NCBI GenBank assembly: GCA_003233455.1
Contig: QILQ01000012.1
Span: 4,441-68,440 of the forward strand
Source of the DNA: Candidatus Zambryskiibacteriota bacterium
GTDB taxonomy: Bacteria; Patescibacteriota; Minisyncoccia; Phycocordibacterales; WO2-35-19
DNA length: 64,000 bases
Direction of reading: 5' to 3'
The notes under the pieces are model-generated. The model was not told the origin of the DNA. It worked only from the letters and a program-made list of their open reading frames with translations, and made no database searches. This document shows positions 13,137-57,816 of the stretch, in pieces. A program made the translations under genes and the position numbers. Every line of letters begins with the position of its first letter. Position 1 is the stretch's first letter.

Positions 13137-13390
13137 AAATATTTTGGACGAATGAATTTAATAAAAATTTAAAACTTCTCCCAACTAAAACAAGAAGGCT
13201 CTACAAAAAACAGGAAAATATCTTTTTTGTAAACTGGAAAGATCCTCGCCTCCACACAAAAAAACTAAAAGGAGTTAATCAGATTTTTTCTTTTAGAATT
13301 ACAAGAAAATATAGAGTTTTATTTAAAATTACAGATAAATCCTCAATTTTGTTTGTTTCAATAGGTCACAGAAAAAATATTTATGACTAA
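13133..13390 (+). CDS. RelE/ParE(YafQ)-family toxin
   Basis: 85 aa, ...FSFRITRKYRVLFKITDKSSILFVSIGHRKNIY. Confidence 0.6.
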   Translation: MKIFWTNEFNKNLKLLPTKTRRLYKKQENIFFVNWKDPRLHTKKLKGVNQIFSFRITRKYRVLFKITDKSSILFVSIGHRKNIYD

Positions 13391-14324
13391 ATTTCAACCA
13401 AAAAAATCATTGGGGCAACATTTTTTGAGAGATTCAAAAATACTCAAGAGAATTGTTGATTTTGCCGAGATTAAAAAAACAGATATTATGGTAGAAGTGG
13501 GACCTGGAGAAGGAGGACTTACTAAATTACTTCTTGAACAAGCGAAAAAAGTGATAGCGGTTGAAAAAGATGAAGAGATGGTAATTTTTTTGAAAGGCAA
13601 ATTTAAAAAAGAAATCAAAGAAGGAAAATTAGAAATTGTTGAAGGAGATATTTTAGATTTTTATTCGCAAAATATTTTCTCGCCACTTGCGGACTCAAAC
13701 TATTTTGCCACCAACTATAAATTAGTTGGCAATATCCCATATTACATAACTGGAGCTTTGTTTAAAAAAGCTTTAGAAGCTTCAAATTTTCCAAAATCAA
13801 TAACTTTTGTAGTCCAAAAAGAGGTAGCACAAAGAATTATGGCTCAAAGATGCCTGCCTGCCGGTGGGCAGGGAAAAGAAAGTATTTTGAGTATTTCCAT
13901 AAAAGTTTATGGCAAGCCGAAATATGGGGGAGTTATAAAAGCGGGCAGTTTTTATCCAAAACCAAAAGTTGATTCGGCTATTTTATCAGTAAGAGGTATT
14001 TCAAAAGAAAAATTTCAAAGGACTGACCTTAAAAAAAATCCCAAAGGTCAGTCCTTGGGAAAAGAAAATTTTTCTTTTGGGGAAATACTTGAGCAGAATT
14101 TCTTTAAAATATTAAAAATAGGATTTTCTCATAAAAGAAAGTTGCTTATTAAAAATTTGGAGAACCTGTCAAGGGTCGCCTTTTTGGGGCAACTTTCAAA
14201 GGCGACCCTTGACACTTCAAATCTAAAAGAAATTTTTGAAAAATGTGGAATTTCAGATAAAGCCAGAGCAGAAGATTTAAAAGTTGAAGATTGGATTTGC
14301 TTGAGCAAAAAGTTTTCACCATAA
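13383..14324 (+). CDS. rsmA: 16S rRNA (adenine1518/1519-N6) dimethyltransferase RsmA/KsgA, with in-frame palindromic insertions
   Basis: LGQHFLRDSKILKRIV...VEVGPGEGGLT...FYPKPKVDSAIL...FSHKRKLLIKNL; longer than usual owing to inserted segments. Confidence 0.85.
   Translation: MTKFQPKKSLGQHFLRDSKILKRIVDFAEIKKTDIMVEVGPGEGGLTKLLLEQAKKVIAVEKDEEMVIFLKGKFKKEIKEGKLEIVEGDILDFYSQNIFSPLADSNYFATNYKLVGNIPYYITGALFKKALEASNFPKSITFVVQKEVAQRIMAQRCLPAGGQGKESILSISIKVYGKPKYGGVIKAGSFYPKPKVDSAILSVRGISKEKFQRTDLKKNPKGQSLGKENFSFGEILEQNFFKILKIGFSHKRKLLIKNLENLSRVAFLGQLSKATLDTSNLKEIFEKCGISDKARAEDLKVEDWICLSKKFSP
14018..14056. repeat. Perfect 13-bp inverted repeat (AAGGACTGACCTT/AAGGTCAGTCCTT) inside rsmA coding sequence
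   Basis: Direct reading; encodes RTDLKKNPKGQSLG within the ORF. Confidence 0.7.
14167..14214. repeat. Perfect 17-bp inverted repeat (TGTCAAGGGTCGCCTTT/AAAGGCGACCCTTGACA) inside rsmA coding sequence
   Basis: Direct reading; encodes SRVAFLGQLSKATLDTS inserted between conserved KRKLLIKNLENL and NLKEIFEKCGI. Confidence 0.75.
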
Positions 14325-14361
14325 GCAAAAAAAGTATAAAATCTTTGCTATACTTAAACAA

Positions 14362-15210
14362 ATGATTGCTTTACCAAGTAAAAAAGTTTTGAGTATTTTG
14401 ATTTTAACAACTGCTTTGGTAGTAGCTGTTATTATCGCTTTTGGCAGAGATAAAAACAATAAAACCATAAATTTTGCCAGTAATTTAGTGGCAGGAGATA
14501 AAGTCTCATTACCAAAAAATCCAAATTGGCAAAATGAATTAAATAATGTAACCACCGGTATAAATCAAACAGAAGAAAACGCTTCAACAACAAAAGAAAC
14601 TGCCACTGATATTATATCAAGAAGTTTGATATCAAATTATTTAGCTTTAAAACAAAGTGGTAATTTAAACCAACAATCAGCCAAAAAATTAGTATCTCAA
14701 ACTGTAAATTTAACTAACCAATTGGGAAATAAAGTTGTTTTAAATACCAAACTTAATATTGTGGCTAACAATGGTCGTCAATCAATTCTTGACTATGGTG
14801 AAAATTTAGGAAATATTCTAAAAAAGAATAGACCTAAAGAATTAAAAAATGAATTGAAGATTATCAGTCAAGCGGTAGAATTAAGAGACCCATCAAAAAT
14901 AAATGAGTTGGACAGTGTTATTGTTGTCTATCAAAAAATTGTTGATAAACTGATTAAAATGCCCGTGCCTCAAACTTTTGCTAAAGCTCACTTGGATTTA
15001 ACCAATGGATTAAAGGGGGTAATCATCTCTCTTACAGAAATGAAAACTATTTTTAATGACCCCATTAAAAGTTTGTCGTATATGCAACTATACAAAGAAA
15101 GTGTAAATAAATTTACTCAAGCGATAAAAGCCACTGATATATTTATAATTCAGAATAAGATTATTTATAAACAAGGTAGCGGTGGCTACTACTTATTATA
15201 CGGGATATAA
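14362..15210 (+). CDS. Hypothetical secreted/membrane-anchored protein
   Basis: N-terminal hydrophobic anchor, N/Q/K-rich. Confidence 0.35.
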   Translation: MIALPSKKVLSILILTTALVVAVIIAFGRDKNNKTINFASNLVAGDKVSLPKNPNWQNELNNVTTGINQTEENASTTKETATDIISRSLISNYLALKQSGNLNQQSAKKLVSQTVNLTNQLGNKVVLNTKLNIVANNGRQSILDYGENLGNILKKNRPKELKNELKIISQAVELRDPSKINELDSVIVVYQKIVDKLIKMPVPQTFAKAHLDLTNGLKGVIISLTEMKTIFNDPIKSLSYMQLYKESVNKFTQAIKATDIFIIQNKIIYKQGSGGYYLLYGI

Positions 15211-27428: not shown

Positions 27429-27474
27429 TAATGTATAATTAACCAGTATTCGTTTATTAATATAATTTAATCGT

Positions 27475-29649
27475 ATGAAAAAAATAATTATTCTTTTTAT
27501 TGCATTTTTAATAATATCTCCCAATTTCGCTTCTGCATCTACAATTAATAACTTACAAGAACAAATAAGATCTCTGCTCGCGCAAATTGCCTCACTTCAG
27601 CAACAACTATCACAACAAGTAGGTCAATCTGAACAAAAAATTTATACCAATACAAATAGAAATACATGCCTTTCACTTACCAACAATTTATCATATAGAT
27701 CAAGAGACTCTTGGACAAACGGGGAAGTATCAACATTGCAAGATTTTCTTCAGGTAAAAGGATATCTAAGCTCTGAACCAACGGGGTATTTTGGCCTTCT
27801 TACTCTTGAGGCGGTAAAGAAATTTCAAATCGCAAACGGTATTAGCCCAGTTCAAGGGTTTGTAGGAGTTCTCACTAGAGCAAAACTTAATTCTATGAAT
27901 AGTTGTGCTAAAACAACCACCAAAACAAGTCCAATTTCAACTTCAAACCAAATACACACACTTTCTATTCTTTATCCAACCCATAATGCTTCGTTTATCG
28001 GTACTGGTCCCAGTACAGTAACTTGGACTGATGGCGATGCAAACGGAAAATATGCTATTAAAGTCACTGTTATAAATTCTGTTGGGTATTCTTCAGGTAC
28101 AAAAGTTTTCTCCACTACCCTTACTAGAGAACAATCGGGGTGTTCGGCTAGCGATAAATGTTCCTACTCATTATCAGTAAAAATAGCTGGAACTTATCGT
28201 TTAAGTGTCAAAAATCAAACCAACGGAGTAAGCGATACAGTAAACTTTACAATTCAGGCAAATACAATCTCTCAAGTTCCTTCTATAACTATTCTTTCAC
28301 CTTCACCAATGGGAGTAAAAGGGGGGTTAGATATTGATCCAGGTAGTAATTATACTATTCGATGGACATCAACCGAGTTAAATAAAGTAAAACCTTACTT
28401 ATGTACTTATTCAGGAAGTTGTAAAATTTTAGGGAATGTACCCAATGTTGGTGTTAATACTTATTTAGGTTCTTTTAATTGGTATGTTGATCCAAATCAT
28501 CCATATTTTCCTGGTTATAATTTACGAATAAAACTTGAAGATGCTTCAAATAGTAAGGTGTTTGCTTATAGTGGTTATTTTGATGTTATTCCTATAATTG
28601 ATATAGCTCCTCAAATTCTTTATCCCAAGGGTGGTGAGATACTACAAGGCAACATAACAAATTTTATTTCTTGGAATCCAATATCATATTCCGAAACATT
28701 TGATGTATCAATTATAGGAATTGATTCTGGAAATAGTTATTTAATTATTCAGAATGTACCAGCTAAAGCAACTGATAAGCAATCAATCCAGTGGACACCT
28801 AAAACGGGGATGTACGAAAAAGATACTCGGTTCATGGCACAGGTGTGCAGAACAGGAACAACTCTTTGTTCAAAAAGTAATGGTTTTACTATTAACTTTC
28901 CAAACACTTCACAAACTCAACCATCTAATGGTAATTTCTCCATTTCTAGAAGTTCATTTGATTTCAAATATACTCAAGGTGAAAAAACTCCTCCACTTCA
29001 AGACCTAACTTTTACCAATACCTCTAACACGAAGATTACCTATACTTTAAAAGTAGACAACAAACCTAACTGGTTAAATACTAGCTATAATACAGACTCT
29101 GCAACGGTTTGGCCCGGGACAGTCACTGGCTTGCATGCTCTTGTTGATCCTGTAGGTTTAGCTCCAGGAAATTACAAAACAACCCTCTCTATTAATGGAA
29201 ATTTTACCAATTCACCTATTTCTATTCCAATTACCTTATCTGTAGTTAGTAAACCTACCACATCTAATGTAACCCCCCCAACCAACCTTACCGGCTCTTG
29301 CCCAGCACCTTATACTAAAGCAAATGTTAGTTGGGTCGCTAGTGGATACAGTCCATACTATGTCCGCATGAATCCTGGTGCTTATAATTACACATGGCCT
29401 TTGTCTTCAGGTGGTATAGTAAATCAAGTGACTAATACTAATTGGAGTTTTCCTACTACTCCTGGGAAACATTATACTTGGTGGTTAACTGTCGTAGATC
29501 CTAAAACTGGCACCATGACCGATAGGGTTGTTTATGATTTGTCTTGTGGAACCCCCCCTACAGCTACCACTCTAAACTCCAATCAAATGGCGAATGTTTT
29601 GATGTCTGTTTCGGCAATTTTAAAAAACATACTAAAATCGTTGAGATAG
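27475..29649 (+). CDS. Secreted protein with peptidoglycan-binding (PG_binding_1-like) domain and Ig-like repeats
   Basis: Signal peptide, coiled coil, then TLQDFLQVKGYLSSEPTGYFGLLTLEAVKKFQIANGISPVQGFVGVLTRAKL. Confidence 0.45.
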   Translation: MKKIIILFIAFLIISPNFASASTINNLQEQIRSLLAQIASLQQQLSQQVGQSEQKIYTNTNRNTCLSLTNNLSYRSRDSWTNGEVSTLQDFLQVKGYLSSEPTGYFGLLTLEAVKKFQIANGISPVQGFVGVLTRAKLNSMNSCAKTTTKTSPISTSNQIHTLSILYPTHNASFIGTGPSTVTWTDGDANGKYAIKVTVINSVGYSSGTKVFSTTLTREQSGCSASDKCSYSLSVKIAGTYRLSVKNQTNGVSDTVNFTIQANTISQVPSITILSPSPMGVKGGLDIDPGSNYTIRWTSTELNKVKPYLCTYSGSCKILGNVPNVGVNTYLGSFNWYVDPNHPYFPGYNLRIKLEDASNSKVFAYSGYFDVIPIIDIAPQILYPKGGEILQGNITNFISWNPISYSETFDVSIIGIDSGNSYLIIQNVPAKATDKQSIQWTPKTGMYEKDTRFMAQVCRTGTTLCSKSNGFTINFPNTSQTQPSNGNFSISRSSFDFKYTQGEKTPPLQDLTFTNTSNTKITYTLKVDNKPNWLNTSYNTDSATVWPGTVTGLHALVDPVGLAPGNYKTTLSINGNFTNSPISIPITLSVVSKPTTSNVTPPTNLTGSCPAPYTKANVSWVASGYSPYYVRMNPGAYNYTWPLSSGGIVNQVTNTNWSFPTTPGKHYTWWLTVVDPKTGTMTDRVVYDLSCGTPPTATTLNSNQMANVLMSVSAILKNILKSLR

Positions 29650-42353: not shown

Positions 42354-42467
42354 CCTCCCTAACTCTCCTTACTTTAAGGAGGGAACCGCGCAATAAACTC
42401 TGTTAAACAACTGAATAATAAATATGAGTCACCCTCTCCTTAAGGTAAGGAGAGGGCTGGGGAGAGG
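42354..42467. repeat. Two copies of GC-rich palindromic hairpin element (CTCTCCTTAcTTTAAGGAGGG and CCCTCTCCTTAaggTAAGGAGAGGG) in yebC-ruvB intergenic region
   Basis: Direct reading; same family as 23673, 46365, 47863. Confidence 0.6.
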
Positions 42468-43537: not shown

Positions 43538-43617
43538 ATTTTATCATATATGATATACTCTTTTTGAATTTGAAATGATTGTAGTTTGAATAGAATGTTT
43601 TAATTTGCCTACACACT

Positions 43618-43779
43618 GGAGATACAAATCTCTAAGCGACACCTCGCTTTGGCGCGGTTAGACATTAAATCAAGGAAGAGCTGGTATCGTCTTTCGGGAA
43701 GAACCACTAGCTCTTTCCTCAGAATAATGTTTTGCTTTTTATTTAAATATAGAAAGTGTCGCTTAGAGATTTGTATCCC
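43618..43779. ncRNA. 162-bp element closed by 24-bp terminal inverted repeats with internal bubble and apical stem: 6S-RNA-like sRNA candidate or MITE
   Basis: GGAGATACAAATCTCTAAGCGACAC (43618-43642) vs GTGTCGCTTAGAGATTTGTATCCC (43756-43779); inner stem GGAAGAGCTGGT/ACTAGCTCTTTCC; poorly paired middle. Confidence 0.35.
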
Positions 43780-43862
43780 TAATTTCATTATTCACAAAAC
43801 TCTTGCTTCGGCAATTTATTTTGTGTATAACTTTTTAGGAAAAGTTCTTTGAAACGTTAATT

Positions 43863-46364: not shown

Positions 46365-46415
46365 CCTCACCCCTCACTCCGTGTAGCCCTCTCCTTAATA
46401 AGGAGAGAGGGGAGA
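46365..46415. repeat. GC-rich palindromic repeat element (CCTCACCCCTCACTCC + CCCTCTCCTTAataAGGAGAGAGGGG)
   Basis: Inverted orientation relative to 23673 copy; intergenic. Confidence 0.6.
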
Positions 46416-47630: not shown

Positions 47631-48125
47631 ATGAAAGAATTTTTATCTAAAAATGTAGAAGAAACAGCCAAAATTGCTACTGATTTTGGAAAGCAATTAA
47701 ATAGAATAAACAGAAAGGCACCTTCCGCAAAAGCTACTGTTGTGGGGTTGTATGGAGAATTGGGAAGTGGTAAGACTGCTTTTATGAAATATTTAGCGAA
47801 TTTTTTTGGTATTAAAGAAACTATCCAAAGTCCAACTTATGTAATTATGAAAACTTATAAAACCTCACCCCCCAGCCCCCTCTCCTTAACAAGGAGAGGG
47901 GGAGAAGAAAACTCCCGTTCTCTTGGGAGTGAGGTGTTCCAACATTTAATTCATATTGACGCTTATCGGATAGAAAAAGAAGATGAGATGATAAATTTAG
48001 GTTGGCAAGAAATTATATCTGACCCTAAAAATTTAATTTGTATAGAATGGCCGGAAAATATCTCAGGTATAATGCCTGAGCATACTATGATAAAATTTAA
48101 ACAAAAAATGACGAAAGAAAAATAG
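47631..48125 (+). CDS. tsaE: tRNA threonylcarbamoyladenosine biosynthesis ATPase TsaE with in-frame repeat-element insertion
   Basis: VGLYGELGSGKTAFMKYL...IQSPTYVIMKTY...IHIDAYRI...LICIEWPE; 22-aa insert SPPSPLSLTRRGGEENSRSLGS encoded by repeat. Confidence 0.7.
   Translation: MKEFLSKNVEETAKIATDFGKQLNRINRKAPSAKATVVGLYGELGSGKTAFMKYLANFFGIKETIQSPTYVIMKTYKTSPPSPLSLTRRGGEENSRSLGSEVFQHLIHIDAYRIEKEDEMINLGWQEIISDPKNLICIEWPENISGIMPEHTMIKFKQKMTKEK
47863..47936. repeat. GC-rich composite palindromic repeat element inserted in frame in tsaE
   Basis: CCTCACCCC...CCCCCTCTCCTTaacaAGGAGAGGGGG...ACTCCCgttctcttGGGAGTGAGGTG. Confidence 0.7.
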
Positions 48126-48710: not shown

Positions 48711-51131
48711 ATGTCAAGTAAAAATGTGAATAAAAAAGAAAAGAAGAAACTAGTATTGCTTGATGCACACGCTATTATTCATCGGGCTTATCACGCCATA
48801 CCTGATTTTGCGACCAGTAGGGGTGAGCCGACTGGAGCTTTATATGGGTTGATTTTAATGATTTTGAAAATAGCGACGGATTTGAAACCGGATTATATTG
48901 TGGCTTGCTATGATTTACCAAAACCAACTTATAGGCACGAAGTTTATGAAGGATATAAAGCAGGTAGAGCAAAGACTGATAATGATTTAGTGGAACAGCT
49001 TGAAAAATCAAAACAAATTTGCGAAGTTTTAAATATTCCGATGTATTCTAAAGAAGGTTTTGAAGCGGATGATATGCTTGGCACTATTGTAGAAAAAACT
49101 AAAAATGATAAATTAGATATAATTATAGCCTCTGGCGATATGGATACGATGCAGTTGGTAAAAGATGCCGATAAAAATAATGGAAATGTAAAAGTTTATA
49201 CTTTAAAAAAAGGCATTAAAGAAACTATTTTATATGATGAAAAAGAGGTTAAAGAAAGATTTGGTTTTGAACCGAAATTTTTAGTAGATTTTAAAGGATT
49301 GCGAGGAGATCCATCAGATAATATTATCGGTATAGTGGGCATAGGAGAAAAAAGCGCGACCGAATTAGTAAAAAATTTTGGCAGTATTGAAAATATTTAT
49401 AAAATTTTAAAAAAGAATCCAAAAAAACTTGAAGAAAGAGGTATCAAAAAAAGGATAATAGAACTTTTGAAAGAGGGGGAAGAAGAAGCGAAGTTTAGTA
49501 AAATGTTGGCTACCATCAGAAGAGACGCACCAATTGATTTTATTTTGCCGACTGAAAAATGGAAGGATGGTTTAGATTTGAAAAAAGCAGATAATTTATT
49601 TTCTAAATTTGAATTTAGAAAGATGGGGGAAAAATTAAGGAGTGTTTTAAATAATCGCTCAGGAAGTCCTGCTCAAAAAGTCCTCGGGTCGCACTTACAG
49701 GACTCAACCAAACTTTCCTCACAGGATTTCCTGAGTGATAATGACCTTCAAGAATTAAAAATAGCTCTTTGGGTGGTTAATTCAAATATAACTAATCCTA
49801 AAGTAGAAGATATTTTTAATTTTACTGGTGTAAATTCACTAGAAAAAAGTAAAGAAATAATTTTTGCGGAGCTTAAAAAAAGAGAAAGTGAATTTATTTT
49901 TGAGGAAATAGAAAAACCTTTACTTTCTGTAATTAAAAAAATGGAAGATAGAGGAGTTTTAATAGATGCTGAATTTTTAAAAAAATTAAATAAAAATTAT
50001 TCAAAAGATGTAAAAGAAATAGAAAAGAAAATATGGAAAGAGGCGGATACCGAGTTTAATGTGGCTTCTCCAAAACAGTTGGGAGAAATTTTATTTAATA
50101 AATTGAGTCTGACTGTTAAATATCAAAAGAAAACAAGCACTGGAGCCAAATCAACCAAAGAATCTGAATTGCTAAAAATGAAAGATTTACACCCCATAAT
50201 ACCAATGATTTTAGAATTTCGGGAGCTTTCAAAACTTGTTTCTACTTATATAGAACCTATACCTAAAATGGTGGATAATAAAAATAGATTGCATACTAAA
50301 TTTATCCAAACCGGCACCACTACCGGTCGGATGGCATCGCAAAACCCTAATTTGCAAAATATTCCCATAGGTTCAGAAAAAGGAAAAGTAATCAGAAAAG
50401 CTTTTTTGGCTCCAAAAGGATTTAAATTAGCCTCTTTTGATTATTCGCAAATAGAACTCAGAATTGCCGCTTTTCTCTCCGGTGATAAAAAATTGATTCA
50501 AATTTTTAAGTTAAACGAAGATGTCCATAGCAGTGTCGCTTCATATGTTTTTGGAGTATCAACAGAAAAAGTGGATAAAGAAATGCGTCGGAGAGCTAAA
50601 GTAATAAACTTCGGTATTCTTTATGGGATGGGGGTAAATGCTTTGATGAAAAATTTGGGCTCTGATAGAAAAACAGCTCAAGAATTTTATAATACTTATT
50701 TTGAAAAATTTGACGGTTTGGCGCGATATTTGGATTCTTCAAAAGAAGAAGTAAATAAACTTGGTTATACTAAAACATTTTTTGGTAGGCGGAGATATTT
50801 TGAAGGTATCAAATCCAAACTGTCTTTTATTCGGGCGGCGGCGGAAAGGATGGCTATTAACGCTCCGATTCAGGGAACTTCAGCTGATATTATTAAAATA
50901 GCTATGAAAAAAGTTGATGATTTTATTGTAGAAAATAAATTAGAGAAAAAAGTTTATCTTATTCTTCAAATTCACGATGAGCTTATTTATGAAATATCGG
51001 ATGATTTAATAATGGAAATAACGCCAAAAATAAAAAATATAATGCAAAATATTTTGTCTCCCGAGAAAATTTATAAAGTGCCTATTATTGTTAATTTCTC
51101 TTCGGGACAAAATTGGGGAGAATTATCTTAA
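48711..51131 (+). CDS. polA: DNA polymerase I (5'-3' exonuclease + polymerase; 3'-5' exonuclease domain vestigial/absent)
   Basis: N-terminal 5'-nuclease, C-terminal KFIQTGTTTGRMASQNPNLQNIP, RRRAKVINFGILYGMG, ILQIHDELIYE; only ~90 aa between domains. Confidence 0.85.
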   Translation: MSSKNVNKKEKKKLVLLDAHAIIHRAYHAIPDFATSRGEPTGALYGLILMILKIATDLKPDYIVACYDLPKPTYRHEVYEGYKAGRAKTDNDLVEQLEKSKQICEVLNIPMYSKEGFEADDMLGTIVEKTKNDKLDIIIASGDMDTMQLVKDADKNNGNVKVYTLKKGIKETILYDEKEVKERFGFEPKFLVDFKGLRGDPSDNIIGIVGIGEKSATELVKNFGSIENIYKILKKNPKKLEERGIKKRIIELLKEGEEEAKFSKMLATIRRDAPIDFILPTEKWKDGLDLKKADNLFSKFEFRKMGEKLRSVLNNRSGSPAQKVLGSHLQDSTKLSSQDFLSDNDLQELKIALWVVNSNITNPKVEDIFNFTGVNSLEKSKEIIFAELKKRESEFIFEEIEKPLLSVIKKMEDRGVLIDAEFLKKLNKNYSKDVKEIEKKIWKEADTEFNVASPKQLGEILFNKLSLTVKYQKKTSTGAKSTKESELLKMKDLHPIIPMILEFRELSKLVSTYIEPIPKMVDNKNRLHTKFIQTGTTTGRMASQNPNLQNIPIGSEKGKVIRKAFLAPKGFKLASFDYSQIELRIAAFLSGDKKLIQIFKLNEDVHSSVASYVFGVSTEKVDKEMRRRAKVINFGILYGMGVNALMKNLGSDRKTAQEFYNTYFEKFDGLARYLDSSKEEVNKLGYTKTFFGRRRYFEGIKSKLSFIRAAAERMAINAPIQGTSADIIKIAMKKVDDFIVENKLEKKVYLILQIHDELIYEISDDLIMEITPKIKNIMQNILSPEKIYKVPIIVNFSSGQNWGELS
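49662..49736. repeat. Palindromic repeat element in frame in polA (shares 36-nt core with murE copy)
   Basis: CAAAAAGTCCTCGGGTCGCACTTACAGGACTCAACC vs reverse complement of 57230-57265 (1 mismatch). Confidence 0.7.
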
Positions 51132-51157
51132 CTTTAGTCGGAAAAGTAAAAATTAAA

Positions 51158-51616
51158 ATGCTAAATTTATTTAAAGAATATGAAGGAATTTTCAATCCAG
51201 AAGTAAAAGAAGATTCTAATATAAAAGAAAAAAAAGGAAGAGTTTTTAACTATAATCCTTTTGCTTTGCAAGACGCGATAGGGGAGAAAAATATAAAAAA
51301 AACTTGGATTGAATATCAAAAACTAAAATTAGCCGGTATAGGAGCTGAAGAGATTATACATAGTATAGTAAGAAAAGTAAGAGATATGACATTTATAATA
51401 ATAGGTATCAGCAAAGAAGATTTGGGTTTAAAAGATTATCCGTATAATAAATCAAAAAGAGATGCTAAAAATTGGAAAGAATTAGAACTTAAAAATTTTT
51501 ACACCAAACTGATAATAATTTATCACCAGTCGCGGATGACTTATCCAAATGGTTATTCAATCAATCGGATTGATGAACTTGAGATAGCAATTGAAAAAAT
51601 TTTGCTTAGTATCTAA
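51158..51616 (+). CDS. Hypothetical protein
   Basis: ATG at 51158 (MLNLFKEYEG...), no recognisable domain. Confidence 0.3.
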   Translation: MLNLFKEYEGIFNPEVKEDSNIKEKKGRVFNYNPFALQDAIGEKNIKKTWIEYQKLKLAGIGAEEIIHSIVRKVRDMTFIIIGISKEDLGLKDYPYNKSKRDAKNWKELELKNFYTKLIIIYHQSRMTYPNGYSINRIDELEIAIEKILLSI

Positions 51617-51941
51617 ACTTAGTTATGGCTTCGTGAGTATTGATTTTTCTATAAAATAATTTACTGCAAATAAAAATAACTCTAATAAAAAATCCGGCAA
51701 TCAAGGTTTGCATAATCCAACTCGTATCTCGGATAGCGACTATAAAAAAATTAAAAGTAGAATAAATATTGTTTTTAGGTATGTTGTTTAAAACATTATG
51801 GAAAGAGATTAATAAAAAAGAAATAATAAAAAATAAAGCAAGCATAAAATAATCAGAATAATCCATAAAAATATTTTTTGCATATTCCAAATAAATGCGA
51901 GACATTACTCTTGTTTTTAGATTTAAAAAATTAGTATTCAT
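51606..51941 (-). CDS. Small membrane protein downstream of ECF sigma factor (candidate anti-sigma)
   Basis: 111 aa with 2 TM helices, overlaps sigma gene end. Confidence 0.3.
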   Translation of the reverse strand: MNTNFLNLKTRVMSRIYLEYAKNIFMDYSDYFMLALFFIISFLLISFHNVLNNIPKNNIYSTFNFFIVAIRDTSWIMQTLIAGFFIRVIFICSKLFYRKINTHEAITKFRY

Positions 51942-52473
51942 AATTGTTGTTAAATTTTTTATATATTTCTATAAACATTTTTTTAGATCGATGAACTCTA
52001 ACTCTGGCAGTACTATTTTTTATATTTAATATTCTGGAAATTTCTTTGAATGATTTACCTAAAATATAACGTAAATTTATTATCTCGGCCGCCTTACCGC
52101 CTATTTTGTCTAATACAAATCGCGCATAATTCTGATTGTCATTAATAACATATTCTTCACTTAACATATCCGACGCATCTCCCATTTCTTCAACGAAAGT
52201 AACAGATATATTTTTATATTTATTAATTTGGTCAGCCATACAATTTTTTAAGATAGTATTAGCCCATGGTCTAAACTTACCTCCATTTATGGGAAATTTT
52301 TTACCATATTTATAAATTTTTATAAAAGTATCCTGAACCGCGTCTTCAGCGTCATCTTTTGACCTGAGAGTTTGCTCGGCGATTTTTAAAAACCTCTTAT
52401 AATGGCGGTCAAAAAGTTCGCTAAAATGGTGAGGTCTTTTATATGAAAGCTTTAATATTTCCTCGTCGCTCAT
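51931..52473 (-). CDS. ECF-type RNA polymerase sigma factor
   Basis: DAEDAVQDTFIKIY (region 2), ...ILGKSFKEISRILNIKNSTARVRVHRSKK (region 4). Confidence 0.75.
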   Translation of the reverse strand: MSDEEILKLSYKRPHHFSELFDRHYKRFLKIAEQTLRSKDDAEDAVQDTFIKIYKYGKKFPINGGKFRPWANTILKNCMADQINKYKNISVTFVEEMGDASDMLSEEYVINDNQNYARFVLDKIGGKAAEIINLRYILGKSFKEISRILNIKNSTARVRVHRSKKMFIEIYKKFNNNYEY

Positions 52474-52757
52474 ATTTATATGACTATTGTTTTATTAAAA
52501 ATGTTACATCGTAACTTTCATGGTTAATTGTAGGTCATAAGTGATATAGAAGCAATAATTACAAAATTATGATGTTTATACAAAAAATAAAACAACAAAA
52601 TATAGAATTTTTTCTAAAAGCGCGCCTCTCCAGAGCCCCGCCCTAGAGGGCGTTTAAAACAACAAGACAACACAATTTAAACAAAATTTAATATAAAATT
52701 CCGCGCCATTATGCCAAAAGCATACAACAAGTGCGGAGTTTTTGTTTGTGTATTTTG

Positions 52758-52830
52758 TGCGCCCAGTAGGAATTGAACCTACGACCATTTGCTTAAAAGG
52801 CAACTGCTCTACCAACTGAGCTATGGGCGC
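52758..52830 (-). tRNA. tRNA-Lys (anticodon UUU), no encoded CCA
   Basis: GCGCCCATAGCTCAGTTGGTAGAGCAGTTGCCTTTTAAGCAAATGGTCGTAGGTTCAATTCCTACTGGGCGCA, close to E. coli tRNA-Lys. Confidence 0.85.
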
Positions 52831-52890
52831 ATTAAAACATTGAAAATATAACACAAAATTCTCAAAAACGAAAATTATATAGTATAAATT

Positions 52891-53385
52891 TTACAAAGGC
52901 AAGTCTATGGCGAAAGCACCGGCGCCGGAGAAAAGAAGAGAAATAACAATAGCCAAAAGCATAAAATAAAAAACAAAATTTCTTTTAAGGACTTCCGGTT
53001 CTTTATATTCAATATAGCTTTCGGCAAAGACCAAAAGGCCTAAAACTAAAGCGGCTATTTGAGTATAAAATCCTAGAATAAGCATTACTCCACCTATCAT
53101 CTCAATACCTCCAAATATTTTGACTGCTAATTTAGGGTTGGGTATTTTCAAGGCGGAGAGAGAAATAATCCACCTTTCCTTTTCATTTTTGAAGGCTAAA
53201 AACCCTAGATCTATAAATATAAGACCAGCTACTAGACGCAAAATAAGTGGTGCCAGTAGCGAATAAATAAGTAACTCTGGAAATGGATTTAACATATAAA
53301 TATAATATACTAATATACTAATGATGCAAATGAAACAAATGGCTACAAATAATACAATTGTCATATTAAATAATATACGAAGCAA
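52891..53385 (-). CDS. DoxX-family membrane protein
   Basis: 164 aa, four TM helices, ...FGGIEMIGGVMLILG... Confidence 0.5.
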   Translation of the reverse strand: MLRILFNMTIVLFVAICFICIISILVYYIYMLNPFPELLIYSLLAPLILRLVAGLIFIDLGFLAFKNEKERWIISLSALKIPNPKLAVKIFGGIEMIGGVMLILGFYTQIAALVLGLLVFAESYIEYKEPEVLKRNFVFYFMLLAIVISLLFSGAGAFAIDLPL

Positions 53386-53935
53386 TCAAAATGTTGGTTC
53401 TATTTTTAGGACTGCCGATGCTGTTGGTGTTTCAAAGATAATTTTAGTTGGTTATACTCCAACGCCTACCGATAGATTTGGCAGGGAAAATAAAGGTTTG
53501 ACTAAAGCTTCTTTGGGAGCAGAGAAATTTGTAAAATGGGAGAAAATTGGGAAACTTTCTGAAGTTATTAATAAATTAAAAAATCAGAAAAATTCGTCCT
53601 CCTCACTTAGCACACATAATTTTCTTCTGAAAATTTGCTCTGCTCGGTCTCTCGACCTGCGCAAGGCACGTTCAGAGAAGAATTTTTCTGATTTTTTAAT
53701 TATAGGTATAGAACAAAATAAAAAAGCGATTGATTATAGAAAAATAAAAAATTTGAACCTTGTAACTTGTAACTCTAATCTTGCTCTGGTTTTTGGAAAT
53801 GAAGTTGATGGGCTTTCAAAAGAAGATTTAAAACTTTGCGATATGGTTGCCCAACTTCCAATGTTGGGCAAAAAAGAATCTCTCAATGTTGCTGTTTGTG
53901 CCGGCATTGTTTTGTATTCTTTAATAACTAATTGA
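53321..53935 (+). CDS. SpoU/TrmH-family RNA 2'-O-methyltransferase (with possible inserted segment)
   Basis: NQNVGSIFRTADAVGV...LVFGNEVDGLS...NVAVCAGIVLY; ~35 aa low-complexity insert around 53590-53700. Confidence 0.65.
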   Translation: MMQMKQMATNNTIVILNNIRSNQNVGSIFRTADAVGVSKIILVGYTPTPTDRFGRENKGLTKASLGAEKFVKWEKIGKLSEVINKLKNQKNSSSSLSTHNFLLKICSARSLDLRKARSEKNFSDFLIIGIEQNKKAIDYRKIKNLNLVTCNSNLALVFGNEVDGLSKEDLKLCDMVAQLPMLGKKESLNVAVCAGIVLYSLITN

Positions 53936-54853
53936 ATCAACAATCAGACCTTTTTCATCGTGGAGGTCTATTTTATCATGTCTTGTTCGCCAAAGCGGTC
54001 CAAATTTATTTAAATAAATACGATATTCATTACCCGGAAAATCGGTATCACCAAGATGTTTGGCTATACAAGTATTATAATTTATTTGGGTAGTGATATA
54101 GGTTTTGCAAGCTGAGGAAACAGTATCAGGTAAGTCCCTTATAAATTCATTATCTCTGGTAACGCATCGCGGTATTCTTTCTATAATATTCAAACATTCA
54201 TCATTCCTATCATAAACGTTGGAAAATCTTGGTAAATTTTCGTCTTTTGACAGAGGACATTGTAAAGACAAACTTGGATAAAATGTCCTATTTTCTTCAA
54301 AATAACCGGTACATTTATTTGTTCGGAAAGATATACCTATAGGAGAAAAACCTTTAATTAAATAAACCCTATCTCCTTGTTGAAGGACTACATTACTTTC
54401 TGTTTTGGCAAAAGGAAATGGCAATAAAGCTGCTTGACCGATGATAGTATAATATCCGGTAACTTCACTCTTTAAATACCAGTCGGTTATTTTTAGAGTC
54501 TCATTTTTTTTGAGATTGGTAGAAAGAGAAAGATATTCTTCATTAGGATTATCTTGATAAAGTCCGGATATGTTTGACATTCTAATTTTATCGTAATAAG
54601 GAGAACGTTTGCTTCGTTTTATTTTTTTATCTAAACTTTGTTCTAATTTTTTGATGTCTTTTTTTGCTTCTTTTATATTTGCCGCTACTTCTTTATTTGA
54701 TGAATAACCTAAATTTTTATTGTTTGTTCCGATTGAAGAAATATTTTTGGAGATGTTGTTCCTATTTGTCTTGGCTTTTTTGAGCGGACTGTAAGCAAGT
54801 CCTACAAGAATAAACAAAACTAATATTATAATCAATGGTTCCTTAATATTCAT
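53921..54853 (-). CDS. Hypothetical secreted protein
   Basis: Signal/anchor MNIKEPLIIILVLFILVGLAYS. Confidence 0.35.
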   Translation of the reverse strand: MNIKEPLIIILVLFILVGLAYSPLKKAKTNRNNISKNISSIGTNNKNLGYSSNKEVAANIKEAKKDIKKLEQSLDKKIKRSKRSPYYDKIRMSNISGLYQDNPNEEYLSLSTNLKKNETLKITDWYLKSEVTGYYTIIGQAALLPFPFAKTESNVVLQQGDRVYLIKGFSPIGISFRTNKCTGYFEENRTFYPSLSLQCPLSKDENLPRFSNVYDRNDECLNIIERIPRCVTRDNEFIRDLPDTVSSACKTYITTQINYNTCIAKHLGDTDFPGNEYRIYLNKFGPLWRTRHDKIDLHDEKGLIVDSISY

Positions 54854-55769
54854 ATTTTATCTGGTGTTTGGAGCAAAAGTGAGCGCTTCTGCCCCTAATT
54901 ACTATTCTTTCTATTATACCCGAACAATTCCTTTTTGAACATTTTTGTCCTTTTTTACCGTAAACTTTATGAAAATTCTGAAAACCGCCTTTTTCACCAA
55001 AAACATTTCTATAATCCGATTTGGAATCGCCTCCATATTTAATTGAGAGTTTTAAAATTTTTTGCATTGCTTTAAAAATTTCCGCAAATTTCTCTTTCGG
55101 AATTTTATCGGCGAATGATAAGGGGTGAATGTCGGTTTGCCAAAGAATTTCGTCTGAATAAATGTTGCCAATACCGGCAATGGCTTTTTGGTCAAGTAAG
55201 GCGGATTTTATAGGGGTTCTCTTTTTCTTGCACATTATCTCAAAAAGTTTCTTGGCATTGAATTTCGGGTCAAGAGGGTCCGACCCGAGTTTTGATAAAG
55301 TTTTGTGTTGATGAAGTTTGGTTGTTTCAAAAATAGTAACAGAAGCAAATTTTCTCATATCAGAAAGCACTAAATGTTTATTATTTGATAAAGAAAAAAC
55401 TAGATGTATAAATTGATTGTATGAATCTTGAAGAGGTCCTTTTTTGTAATCACCAACCATTAAGTGTCCTGTCATTTTCATATGGATTATAATGGTGTAT
55501 AAAATCAAGGTTAAACCTTGGAGATTTTCAAGGTTTAACCTTGATTTTATGTGAATTAAAATATTTTTTCCTTTTTTTTCAATAGAAATAATTTTTGCTC
55601 CTACTACAATTTGTTTGAAATAATCAAAATACTTTTTATTTTTTATAGTCTGACTATTTCCGCAAGCGGTATTAACATAAAAATCAGACCAGACATCTTT
55701 AATAGTTTGTCCGATAATAGTCTTTTTTAATCCTTCAACTGTTGTATATACTTCTGGTAGTTCGGGCAT
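54843..55769 (-). CDS. mutM: Formamidopyrimidine-DNA glycosylase (Fpg/Nei family) with in-frame palindromic insertion
   Basis: MPELPEV N-terminus, C-terminal zinc finger C..C...C..C; insert KSRLNLENLQGLTLILYTII before HMKMTGHL. Confidence 0.75.
   Translation of the reverse strand: MPELPEVYTTVEGLKKTIIGQTIKDVWSDFYVNTACGNSQTIKNKKYFDYFKQIVVGAKIISIEKKGKNILIHIKSRLNLENLQGLTLILYTIIIHMKMTGHLMVGDYKKGPLQDSYNQFIHLVFSLSNNKHLVLSDMRKFASVTIFETTKLHQHKTLSKLGSDPLDPKFNAKKLFEIMCKKKRTPIKSALLDQKAIAGIGNIYSDEILWQTDIHPLSFADKIPKEKFAEIFKAMQKILKLSIKYGGDSKSDYRNVFGEKGGFQNFHKVYGKKGQKCSKRNCSGIIERIVIRGRSAHFCSKHQIKYEY
55498..55550. repeat. AT-rich perfect inverted repeat (23-bp arms) inserted in frame in mutM
   Basis: TATAAAATCAAGGTTAAACCTTG-gagatttt-CAAGGTTTAACCTTGATTTTAT. 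Confidence 0.75.
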
Positions 55770-55827
55770 AACTTAAAGATACAAATTTACTAATGATACT
55801 AATAATACAAATGACTACAAATTAAAA

Positions 55828-56109
55828 TTACAATCCTAATCTTTTTTTGGCAATTTCATAAACTTCTTTTCGGTGACCCATAACTTGGATTCTCACTTCT
55901 TTTCCAATAATTTCATAAATAATTCTGTAATCCCCAATTCTCAACCTCCAATATCCTCTAAGATTAGAACGTAGTGGTATACCGTAAATTTCTGGATGAA
56001 ATGATAGTTTTTTGTAACCTTTTAATAAAAGTTTTTTGGATATAGTTCCTAATCTTGGTAGGTCAATGTGCAGAACTTTTGGGTGATAATTTATTTGATA
56101 TGTTTCCAT
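55828..56109 (-). CDS. RelE/ParE-family toxin
   Basis: ...LRGYWRLRIGDYRIIYEIIGKEVRIQVMGHRKEVY. Confidence 0.6.
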   Translation of the reverse strand: METYQINYHPKVLHIDLPRLGTISKKLLLKGYKKLSFHPEIYGIPLRSNLRGYWRLRIGDYRIIYEIIGKEVRIQVMGHRKEVYEIAKKRLGL

Positions 56110-56324
56110 ACTTCTTCATGGGGGATATATTTCACATTCTTTTCTTTAGATCTTTTGTCTGCTATCTCAGCCCAAACAAGATCTTCCTCAAATTCTAAAG
56201 CTTGCTTCACCAACTCCCTAACTTTAGCTGATGTGGGCATGTGATCTCTTTTGGCAAGTTGCTTGATAGCCCAACCTGTGTCTTTATCAACAGTTATGTT
56301 TATTCTTTGTTTTGTGGTGGGCAT
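56091..56324 (-). CDS. Ribbon-helix-helix-type antitoxin partner
   Basis: 77 aa, overlaps toxin start. Confidence 0.4.
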   Translation of the reverse strand: MPTTKQRINITVDKDTGWAIKQLAKRDHMPTSAKVRELVKQALEFEEDLVWAEIADKRSKEKNVKYIPHEEVWKHIK

Positions 56325-56397
56325 AATGTTTTTATTATAAATTTATAATAATTTAAGTGTATCAAAAGTGTAACACTTGTCAATTTGACAATTTTCC

Positions 56398-57816
56398 TTA
56401 TTTAAAAATTTTCTTTAATTCTTCACGAACTACTGTGGCGTCATCCCATTCTTGTTTAGTTCCATTTGGACCCATAATATAAGGGTCGGTACCTTTGCCG
56501 GTAATTAAAACAACCACTTTTTTATTTGAACCTTCTTTATTTGTAAAATCTACAGCTTTTTTGATGGCGGTATTTATAGCTCTTCTTCTGTCCATAATTA
56601 TTTCAACTGGTTTATTTTTTATTCCTTCTTTTATCTCTTCTACAATCTTTTTAGGGTCTTCGTTATAAGGGTCCTCATTTGTTAAAATTATTTGGTCGCA
56701 ATATTTGTCAGCTATTTCTCCCATCACTTTTCTTTTCCAAGTATCTCTACCTCCGCCGGTATTTCCAAGAATACAAATAAGATGATACTTATTTTTCTCT
56801 TTTTTTGAAAGGGGATTATAAGTTTCGTAAACGGCTTTTAATGAATCTGGGGTGTGAGCATAATCAACTACTATATCAATTTGCTTGTTGGCAGGAAGGA
56901 ATTTTGATGTGTCTATTTTCTCCATTCTGCCTCTAATAAATTTTATATTCTCTAATCCTTCTTTTATTTTTTCTAGAGAAATACCTGCAAATCTAGCATA
57001 AGCGATAGCTCCAAGCATATTGGAAACATTAAAAATTCCTGGTAATTTGCTGTGAATGACAATTTTGCCAATTTGAAAAGAGGAACCTTTTTCATCAGCT
57101 TTTATAGCAATAGCATCATTAAGAGAATAAGGAACTTTATTTTTTATATTAAGCTCCAAAAATTTTTCTCCCTCTTTGTCATCGGTATTCGCTATGATCA
57201 CAGGGCCAGAAAAAGATGTCTCTGAGAAAAGTCTGGTTGAGTCCTGTAAGTGCGACCCTAGGACTTTTTGAAGAGATTTCTTTTTCTGGCCTATTAATTC
57301 CTTGGCAATAGTGAGTTTAGCTTTCAAATAATTTTCATAAGAGCCGTGTGACTCAATATGTTCCGGTGCCAAATTGGTGAAAATAAGAGCGTCTAAAAAT
57401 AAAAACTTATGTCTAAATTGAGGCACCCCTTCGGAACTTATTTCAACAATAGCGTAGCTACAGCCCGCACCAACCGCTTGTCTTAAAAATTTTTGGGTAA
57501 AAAATCTACCTCGCAAAGTCATTTTAAACATATTTCTCCATTCTTTTTCTCCAATTTTATATCTTAAAGTGCTAGCTAAAGCTGTTTTATAACCAGCTGT
57601 TTTTAAAATAGTGTTTACCAATTCTACGGTGGTAGTTTTACCTTTAGTGCCGGTAATACCAATGACGATTAATTTTTTAGCGGGGAAGCGATAAATAATC
57701 GCTCCAGTAATTGCTAAAATATAATGATAAATTGGTTGAGTGCTTCTAAATAAACTTTTTGGTATTATTTTTCTGCCAATATTCAATATTTTTTCTAGAA
57801 ATTTTGATTCTTTCAT
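56398..57816 (-). CDS. murE: Mur ligase, MurE-type (UDP-MurNAc-tripeptide synthetase) with in-frame repeat insertion
   Basis: GITGTKGKTTT, DYAHTPDSL; insert ...QKVLGSHLQDSTRL... identical to polA insert. Confidence 0.7.
   Translation of the reverse strand: MKESKFLEKILNIGRKIIPKSLFRSTQPIYHYILAITGAIIYRFPAKKLIVIGITGTKGKTTTVELVNTILKTAGYKTALASTLRYKIGEKEWRNMFKMTLRGRFFTQKFLRQAVGAGCSYAIVEISSEGVPQFRHKFLFLDALIFTNLAPEHIESHGSYENYLKAKLTIAKELIGQKKKSLQKVLGSHLQDSTRLFSETSFSGPVIIANTDDKEGEKFLELNIKNKVPYSLNDAIAIKADEKGSSFQIGKIVIHSKLPGIFNVSNMLGAIAYARFAGISLEKIKEGLENIKFIRGRMEKIDTSKFLPANKQIDIVVDYAHTPDSLKAVYETYNPLSKKEKNKYHLICILGNTGGGRDTWKRKVMGEIADKYCDQIILTNEDPYNEDPKKIVEEIKEGIKNKPVEIIMDRRRAINTAIKKAVDFTNKEGSNKKVVVLITGKGTDPYIMGPNGTKQEWDDATVVREELKKIFK
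57206..57289. repeat. 84-bp palindromic repeat element in frame in murE (outer 11-bp inverted repeat CCAGAAAAAGA/TCTTTTTCTGG, core shared with polA copy)
   Basis: Direct reading. Confidence 0.7.

Follow-up and report, generated by a model that had tools for sequence, protein, structure and literature searches.

How did two unrelated housekeeping genes, polA and murE, come to encode nearly the same peptide? The question is raised by a 64,000-nucleotide (nt) stretch of DNA from a Candidatus Zambryskiibacteriota bacterium (contig QILQ01000012.1 of assembly GCA_003233455.1; hereafter the window, with a G+C content (GC) of ~31%), in which an earlier note had seen the same palindromic element lying in frame in both genes. 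Our analysis points to the following answer: the two copies are probably small, non-autonomous and selfish palindromic repeats of a kind widespread in Patescibacteria, similar to the Rickettsia palindromic elements (RPEs) and the repetitive extragenic palindromes (REPs) of other bacteria.

Two copies of one repeat in polA and murE

The 36-mer CAAAAAGTCCTCGGGTCGCACTTACAGGACTCAACC was found at 49674-49709 on the forward strand and again, with one mismatch (35/36), at 57235-57270 on the reverse strand, 5 nt away from the position 57230-57265 first given for murE. The number of such matches expected under dinucleotide shuffles was 0.00. The match was not only reproduced but extended to 52 nt (Table 1), 48 of which were identical when both copies were read in the orientation of their genes, confirming that the element has the same orientation relative to polA and to murE. 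Both copies were in frame, as had been reported. Copy 1 encoded QKVLGSHLQDSTKL from residue 322 of the 806-residue PolA, copy 2 encoded QKVLGSHLQDSTRL from residue 183 of the 472-residue Mur ligase, and the peptide shared by the two proteins was QKVLGSHLQDST(K/R)L. Orthologs of this Mur ligase bear the name UDP-N-acetylmuramoyl-tripeptide synthetase in Zambryskibacteria and Paceibacterota, with other relatives in Patescibacteria.

Both copies capped long hairpins. Outer inverted repeats, also described before, were present at both loci; the perfect repeat in murE (GGCCAGAAAAAGA/TCTTTTTCTGGCC, within arms 57204-57233/57262-57291) was 13 bp long and not 11 bp, and the 21-nt arms in polA (49651-49671/49722-49742) were 86% complementary. 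When folded as RNA, the polA hairpin reached -37.7 kcal/mol (z -5.5 against shuffled sequence) and the murE hairpin -34.5 kcal/mol (z -6.3). The outer arms differed between the two genes: the unit common to polA and murE was only the apex of ~52 nt, and the outer inverted repeats were locus-specific and unrelated. No further diverged copies were detected when an nhmmer profile of the core was run against the 64-kb window, giving a density of 2 per 64 kb. A scan of genome contigs with the 20-mer GGGTCGCACTTACAGGACTC returned one match, a chance one inside atpD of Youngiibacter.

A dispersed family of repeats

Metagenome contigs (designated by L numbers) were surveyed with the pattern AAAGTCCTMGGRTCN{10,24}CCARACTTT, a degenerate core of ~40 nt (AAAGTCCTMGG-RTC-N-CCARACTTT), which matched at least 120 loci. 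Among the matches listed, to which all counts of copies in this text refer, there were 109 non-redundant copies with full flanks, or 116 under looser de-duplication; since the exact-pattern scan includes orthologous copies of related genomes, the counts are descriptive and do not represent independent events. Sixty of the 109 copies were located in open reading frames (ORFs) of at least 200 amino acids and 49 in short ORFs or intergenic DNA, and the looser set was divided similarly (63 of 116 in such ORFs, 53 elsewhere). The 63 ORF copies fell into 26 clusters of host proteins, of which a few were spurious ORFs or genes with the element directly before the start; one copy, lying upstream of map, was grouped with these clusters. 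The search for the core beyond the locus, which had been proposed as a check, thus recovered it in at least 20 unrelated housekeeping gene families, including PolA and MurE, and between the genes of many metagenomic genomes. Hosts confirmed with Pfam were MnmA, RNase R, RecG, a TrwB-like ATPase, UvrA, TruB, Dus, DnaE, RecJ, Tgt, RseP, ParB, transketolase, a PG-binding protein, Fmt, LeuRS, LepA and KsgA. The GC of the host loci ranged from 31 to 56%. Relatives of the host proteins were named Zambryskibacteria, Pacebacteria, Paceibacterota, Parcubacteria and Minisyncoccia, the last four names also in the case of the high-GC RecJ of L078, and the genomes hosting the family were placed in Parcubacteria/Paceibacteria, including Zambryskibacteria-like genomes.

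The copies in ORFs were read in all six frames (F0 14, F1 15, F2 20, R0 6, R1 4 and R2 4), and in MurE, MnmA, RNase R, RecJ and RseP the core was found both ways round at a single site. The idea of a single frame and a single orientation relative to the host genes was therefore abandoned. What holds of the proposed mobile in-frame element is a dispersed repeat of the copy-and-spread type that is tolerated in frame, occurs between genes as well as inside at least 20 unrelated ones, and is present or absent at orthologous sites; the fixed frame and orientation do not. The core was free of stop codons in every forward frame and in most reverse frames, which makes survival in frame possible; the A-type core (see below) contained a TGA in one reverse frame. 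In the intergenic copies, which typically occupied the spacer between co-directional genes, the core was open in the forward frames too (47-48 of 49).

Those intergenic copies were considered as intrinsic terminators, and this was rejected on the grounds that no T-run followed the stem. The copies before nusG, rplK and rpsJ (L098 2290-2327 and 2934-2971; L022, L024, L039 and L053) had near-identical stems, TTCGTCAGAATGAAAATTTGCA / TGAAATTTTATTCTGACTCG, and stopped ~30 nt before the start codon; a leader or processing role is possible for them. When Rfam was searched at gathering and at permissive thresholds, only tRNAs and noise were returned, with no family match for the core and no intron family. 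Full-text searching of the literature turned up no account of elements like these from Patescibacteria or the candidate phyla radiation (CPR).

A conserved apex on locus-specific stems

Each copy was built in three layers: an asymmetric apex of ~40 nt that was conserved, short semi-conserved linkers, and a stem of 10-30 bp whose sequence belonged to the locus. The apex was quasi-palindromic (AAAGTC-C-T-C-GG against CC-A-GACTTT), with two extra C residues in the left half. Its centre formed a variable mini-hairpin with compensatory variants (CCTGCC/GGCAGG, CCGTCC/GGACGG and CCCCGC/GCGGGG). Orthologous copies had in common AAAGTCCTCGG, RTC, a variable 11-12 nt, CTCRR and CCAGACTTT, and two core subtypes could be told apart, A (GGGTCGC..GCTCAACC) and B (GGRTCTCC..GGCC).

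The stems were tested by comparing local-alignment scores of a copy's own arms with those of arms from different loci. In 96 of the 109 copies, the copy's own arms exceeded the 95th percentile of cross-locus complementarity. One arm cluster (cluster 0) was an inner stem, (C)CAG(C)AGGAAAAGMTTCTCT.., common to copies in unrelated genes, and a second group was intergenic (TTCGTCAGAATGAAAATTTGCA..). The remaining arms made up ~50 singleton types among the 109 copies, and cross-locus arm complementarity was at background level. Two simple accounts of the stems were dropped. Stems are not always pre-existing hairpins, since the cluster 0 inner stem travels with the element, and they are not always borne by the element, since outer stem pairs in recJ and in murE of L042 were copied from native codons.

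Occupied and empty sites in related genomes

Syntenic contigs, fetched by way of MurE orthologs, supplied the DNA for a comparison of sites, and the comparison of PolA and MurE orthologs bore out insertion at both genes. Of 28 aligned MurE orthologs, many carried an insert at exactly the position of copy 2, after a helix ending in AKEL(E/K) and before the strand (V/I)IIAN, and others did not. The murE site was empty in L127 and L128, held only a short stem (GGCCAAAAGAAAAAcTTTTTTTCTGGCC) in L126, and was filled in the window, L002, L003, L047, L117 and L042. At the polA site, the element was absent in L002 and the same place was occupied in L003, L005, L126, L025 and L026. The recJ site was empty in L129, an 85%-identical ortholog, and filled in L078 and L130. 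The same site could be read differently in different genomes: the polA core was translated as AAA GTC CTC in the window, AAG TCC TCG in L003 and AGT CCT CGG in L005. In murE of L003, the core was reversed within stems homologous to those of the window, giving a common peptide type, KKVWPS..RRPEDFLK. The independent syntenic contigs L003, L005 and L126 carried family members at the same polA and murE sites, which excluded a chimeric misassembly joining the two loci.

By MurE identity, the empty L127 and L128 nested within the clade that holds the filled window and L002. Core subtype and orientation were mixed within each host clade and did not follow the MurE phylogeny. Instead, core type tracked the genome and not the site, both copies being A-type in the window and both B-type in L003. 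The exact variant of the window, GCACTTACAGGAC, was also found upstream of rpsJ in L039. Such turnover is compatible with two routes, repeated insertion into permissive sites where stems are re-templated from homologous flanks, or replacement of apexes among resident copies, and under either route the apex is the unit being copied. The lineage-specific apex variant shared by the two window copies would come either from a recent common source copy or from homogenisation of the apexes.

Stems made of a native arm and its inverted copy

At three sites (murE, recJ and fpg), one arm of the stem was native coding sequence and the other arm was its inverted copy. The murE stem of L042 had as its left arm GAGCTGGAGAAAC, which encodes the native E-L-E-K (the codons for E-L-E hardly vary between orthologs), and as its right arm GTTTCTCCAGCTC. 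In recJ, the right arm held conserved L-P-P codons and the left arm mirrored the synonymous codons of each genome: the native L-P-P codons CTTCCGCC paired with GGCGGAAG in L130, and TTGCC paired with GGCAA in L078. When filled and empty sites were compared in these two genes, murE and recJ, no direct target-site duplication was found; an inverted copy of the flank was found in its place.

The fpg ORF (54843-55769, reverse strand) contained an in-frame hairpin without the core at 55499-55550, with perfect 22-bp arms and an 8-nt loop (SRLNLENLQGLTLIL). The hairpin of the window looked like the product of an inverted duplication by which a smaller palindrome, present as an insert in L002, had been enlarged, and the more distant orthologs in L003, L005, L126 and L128 had neither the hairpin nor the small palindrome.

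Orthologous polA copies showed concerted substitutions and indels in both arms, the pair CAGCAGGAAAG/CTTTCCTGCTG of L003 corresponding to CAGAAGAAAAG/CTTTTCTTCTG of L005. Changes of this type would be expected from arm-to-arm copying and would seldom result from independent point mutations.

The insert in the host proteins

Comparison with structures in the PDB placed the PolA insert in the interdomain region, after the 5'-nuclease part (residues 11-278) and before the polymerase part (residues 394-802). MurE was modelled with AlphaFold2 from the 28-sequence alignment, with a mean predicted local distance difference test (pLDDT) score of 74.7. In the model, residues 178-202 of the insert had pLDDT values of 27-35 and no secondary structure, and they were flanked by a helix (160-175) and a strand (206-210). 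The Mur_ligase_M domain of the window MurE was split into two stretches by Pfam. An alignment with the Thermotoga MurE (4BUB) was tried for the limits of the insert; it was too divergent, and close orthologs with empty sites were used in its place. All intragenic copies examined kept the frame and were free of stops over the core and both arms, across the six frames, and insert sizes relative to empty orthologs were whole codons. The frames intact in all six readings, the disordered loop predicted in MurE and the interdomain position in PolA argue that the insert is probably translated and tolerated, and not excised, as a disordered segment of ~20-30 residues in loops and linkers.

Neighbouring features of the window

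Table 1. Positions in the window of the two repeat copies and of the genes that carry them
Feature	Position	Strand	Assignment
polA, host of copy 1	48711..51131	+	Pfam 5_3_exonuc_N, 5_3_exonuc, DNA_pol_A
Copy 1, whole hairpin (PolA residues ~315-344)	49651..49742	+	inverted repeat and fold
Copy 1, 52-nt unit	49673..49724	+	40-nt core 49677-49716
murE-type Mur ligase, host of copy 2	56398..57816	-	Pfam Mur_ligase_M (two stretches), Mur_ligase_C
Copy 2, whole hairpin (MurE residues 176-205)	57204..57291	-	inverted repeat and fold
Copy 2, 52-nt unit	57220..57271	-	40-nt core 57228-57267

The cumulative GC skew of the window peaked at ~50000-52000, where the genes turned from the forward strand (through ORF 51113-51616, downstream of polA) to the reverse strand (from 51606 on). 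This fits a switch like that at a replication terminus, in which case both copies would be equally oriented relative to replication as well as to transcription.

Other palindromic inserts were observed in the window. The tsaE ORF (47631-48125, forward strand) had an in-frame, G+C-rich branched hairpin at 47853-47930 (peptide TSPPSPLSLTRRGGEENSRSLGSE) that split the TsaE domain; the same site was empty in L126, held a short insert in L003 and held an unrelated, near-perfect hairpin of ~80 nt in L002. A second repeat family, CCCTCTCCTT..AAGGAGAGGG, was found at 42363-42454 (an intergenic hairpin), at 46387-46396 and, within the tsaE insert, at 47878-47899; it is a different palindromic element from that in polA and murE. 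In a SpoU/TrmH-like ORF (53321-53935, forward strand), a 128-nt in-frame hairpin at 53574-53701, with 25-nt arms that were 96% complementary, split the SpoU_methylase domain. Different inserts were found at this site in L002 and L005, and none in L003, L126 and L128. Perfect in-frame inverted repeats were further located at 14167-14214 (17-bp arms; ORF 13365-14321, forward strand) and 28588-28721 (16-bp arms; ORF 27466-29646, forward strand). The former contained AGGGTCGC, which resembles part of the core, and had no score with the core profile. At 43621-43777, a perfect 22-bp inverted repeat enclosed a 113-nt structured segment, apparently intergenic, and the region 43600-43800 folded at -74 kcal/mol; a further element or a small RNA is conceivable here, and the window scan with Rfam at the gathering threshold gave no match for it.

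MurE orthologs such as P0002, P0021, P0034, P0005 and P0014 had more polymorphic in-frame inserts, namely after YETY (APRLTKSDSREITSSQ..), in KKGIKPSFVKTSAGEEK and at TLRLASLAQGT near the C-terminus, which suggest additional G+C-rich repeat families in these genomes. In L005 (GCA_964417625.1), a reverse-transcriptase gene (RVT_1, 346 amino acids; 13619-14659, reverse strand) was inserted in the otherwise syntenic region, between spoU and an unannotated gene downstream of fpg.

Mechanism and alternative explanations

A repeat of this build would spread, or be copied, at the DNA level, and would survive in intergenic spacers and, where the frame is kept, in loops and linkers of essential proteins. 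Its stem would be made at least partly from the target, as a native arm plus the inverted copy of that arm. The likely route would be fold-back or intrastrand template switching at the hairpin, which would keep the arms complementary, extend them outward and flip the apex. Judging from the anatomy of the copies, we tentatively propose that such hairpin-driven copying may both make and maintain the locally templated stems around the conserved apex. A bolder version, which we regard as speculative and somewhat unlikely, is that the apex of ~40-52 nt is itself a mobile unit that caps hairpins and works with no classical transposase. Such a "palindrome seed" would colonise permissive loops of essential genes across Patescibacteria, entering or being copied by fold-back or template switching; an inverted duplication of the flank would replace the direct one, palindromes would be extended, homogenised and flipped, and apexes would be exchanged.

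Several points weigh against reading the copies as selfish repeats that have spread through these genomes. No transposase or other mobilising gene was found, no systematic search for one having been made, and neither a donor-recipient pair nor ongoing transposition was observed. Conservation of the core is partly circular, since the scan demanded 23 specified bases, and the tallies of frames and orientations include orthologous copies, so that they do not count events that arose independently. A native arm was clear at three sites only, and translation of the insert is inferred from intact reading frames and structure prediction. Further, the forward orientation was favoured relative to gene direction (49:14 in ORFs, and 8:1 among intergenic copies flanked by co-directional genes), and several intergenic copies ended 6-35 nt before the starts of rpsJ, rplK, nusG, ndk, ftsH and rplU. 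This bias and the position before the starts of highly expressed genes would also fit a function at the RNA level. The core could then be a cis-acting RNA or single-stranded DNA motif selected by the host, such as a protein-binding hairpin cap, a site for RNase III or other processing, or an mRNA stabiliser. The core is kept even though it is read in six frames, indicating that the constraint acts on nucleotides; its two bulged C residues are conserved, its central mini-hairpin has compensatory variants, and map joins the list of genes with a copy immediately upstream. We nevertheless consider a motif of this kind unlikely, because close relatives with empty sites appear intact, the host genes are unrelated and share no theme beyond housekeeping, no Rfam family matched the core, and the orientation bias could equally be a replication-strand bias or the effect of stops in one reverse frame.

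The alternative closest to selfish spread concerns how the polA and murE copies came to be nearly identical. The earlier note held that identical peptides can only be explained by a mobile element, which was too strong: replacement of apexes, or gene conversion between resident elements, could yield near-identity as well, and is made plausible by related genomes in which both sites are occupied by other core variants. The two copies would then be old residents whose apexes were homogenised by gene conversion or template switching, and not the product of a new transposition, and the element would perhaps no longer be mobile here. The similarity does not reach beyond the ~52-nt apex into the stems, which are unrelated, and core type follows the genome in L003 as in the window, both as expected under homogenisation. 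However, conversion would have no more than ~10 nt of homology to guide it on either side of the variable centre, and the polymorphism of sites, together with the presence of the family in at least 20 genes, shows that real insertions took place at some time. We think this possible but lean against it, and it overlaps with the preferred reading of selfish palindromic repeats without excluding it. Much less credit is given to the possibility that the hairpins are removed from the mRNA like introns or bypassed by the ribosome like byp elements, so that the shared peptide is never made. Very stable hairpins do interrupt conserved domains and resemble GC-rich inserts in an AT-rich genome, but neither excision nor bypass would need every intragenic copy examined to be in frame and stop-free, nor inserts in whole codons, and no gene-splitting copy was noticed, without a systematic test for one; this explanation is very improbable. 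An artefact of assembly or amplification is hardly credible. Inverted chimeras can arise from multiple displacement amplification and assembly, but independent assemblies from JGI, ENA, NCBI and Logan agree in showing this architecture at these sites, and the copies keep the frame and evolve together with their hosts.

Significance and comparison with known elements

Selfish palindromes in frame within essential genes are best known from Rickettsia. The case described here lies in the CPR, a large lineage of small genomes that includes Patescibacteria, and it is independent and apparently much more widely distributed. It accounts for many peculiar inserts of low complexity in proteins of Patescibacteria and for many differences in the length of these proteins (QKVLGS..STRLSS, ESPRV..ARLSS, QKSSGL..GQTF and KKVWPS..RRPEDF), provides a marker for annotating and masking such inserts, and offers natural maps of insertion tolerance for PolA, DnaE, MurE, UvrA, RecJ and other proteins. 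Its build, with a conserved apex, locally templated stems, no direct duplication and apex flips, points to a hairpin-driven spread or maintenance undescribed for bacterial REPs or for MITEs, the miniature transposable elements with inverted repeats.

Retention of RPE inserts in mRNA and protein has been shown experimentally. RPE-1 to RPE-8 of Rickettsia are in-frame palindromic elements (Ogata et al. 2000, reviewed in PMC2229807), and intragenic ERIC and Correia elements are likewise known (PMC2229807). Like RPEs, the polA/murE repeats are short palindromes with long predicted stem-loops, found both between genes and in frame within conserved housekeeping genes, tolerated as extra peptide segments and harboured by small genomes of host-dependent bacteria. 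However, RPEs are 105-146 bp long, conserved over their full length and found in Rickettsia, whereas the present family belongs to Patescibacteria and is conserved only in the apex of ~40-52 nt, with stems peculiar to each locus and copied in part from the target, and with the apex in both orientations at one site. Membership among the RPEs is not claimed, and the family is set apart by host phylum and build.

Intragenic GTAG/CGTC REPs have been described, many of them in genes for DNA synthesis and repair (Di Nocera et al. 2013, PMC3733652). They too are small imperfect palindromes, located in the spacers of co-directional genes and within genes of DNA metabolism such as uvrA, and the CGTC REPs are without a known transposase. 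By contrast, the unpaired GTAG/CGTC tag has no counterpart in our core consensus (GTAG/CTAC occurred anywhere in the arms in 14, and CGTC/GACG in 16, of 109 copies), and stems are conserved within a REP family but vary here. No REP-associated tyrosine transposase (RAYT), the Y1 enzyme whose gene the repeats flank in REP/RAYT systems, was identified, no search aimed at one having been made. MITEs such as Correia/NEMIS, ERIC, RUP and YPAL (PMC2229807) resemble the present repeats in being non-autonomous, ~100 bp long, transcribed as stem-loops and, for some MITEs, joined in frame with ORFs. The terminal inverted repeats of MITEs are shared throughout a family and their target sites are duplicated directly, often as TA; the termini of the present repeats differ between loci, and an inverted copy of the flank takes the place of the duplication in murE and recJ.

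Coding palindromes in the mitochondria of Nematomorpha have arms that are actively maintained, for which template switching or arm conversion has been proposed (PMC6649704). They share with the present family long near-perfect inverted repeats in translated genes, concerted arms and dynamic gain and loss. They have no shared core, and both of their arms encode conserved protein, whereas here the apex is dispersed and the hairpin is an insertion in a loop.

The GC clusters and byp elements of yeast mitochondria are palindromic mobile inserts, G+C-richer than the A+T-rich genomes around them, and are also found within protein-coding genes. Ribosomes pass over the byp elements, for which no reading frame has to be kept; in the present family, by contrast, the frame and the absence of stops were always preserved. 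All intragenic copies being in frame and stop-free, neither an intron nor a bypass element describes them, and 20-30 amino acids are far too short for an intein. Lacking the defining features of MITEs and of tagged REPs, the polA/murE family works like the RPEs and the intragenic REPs.

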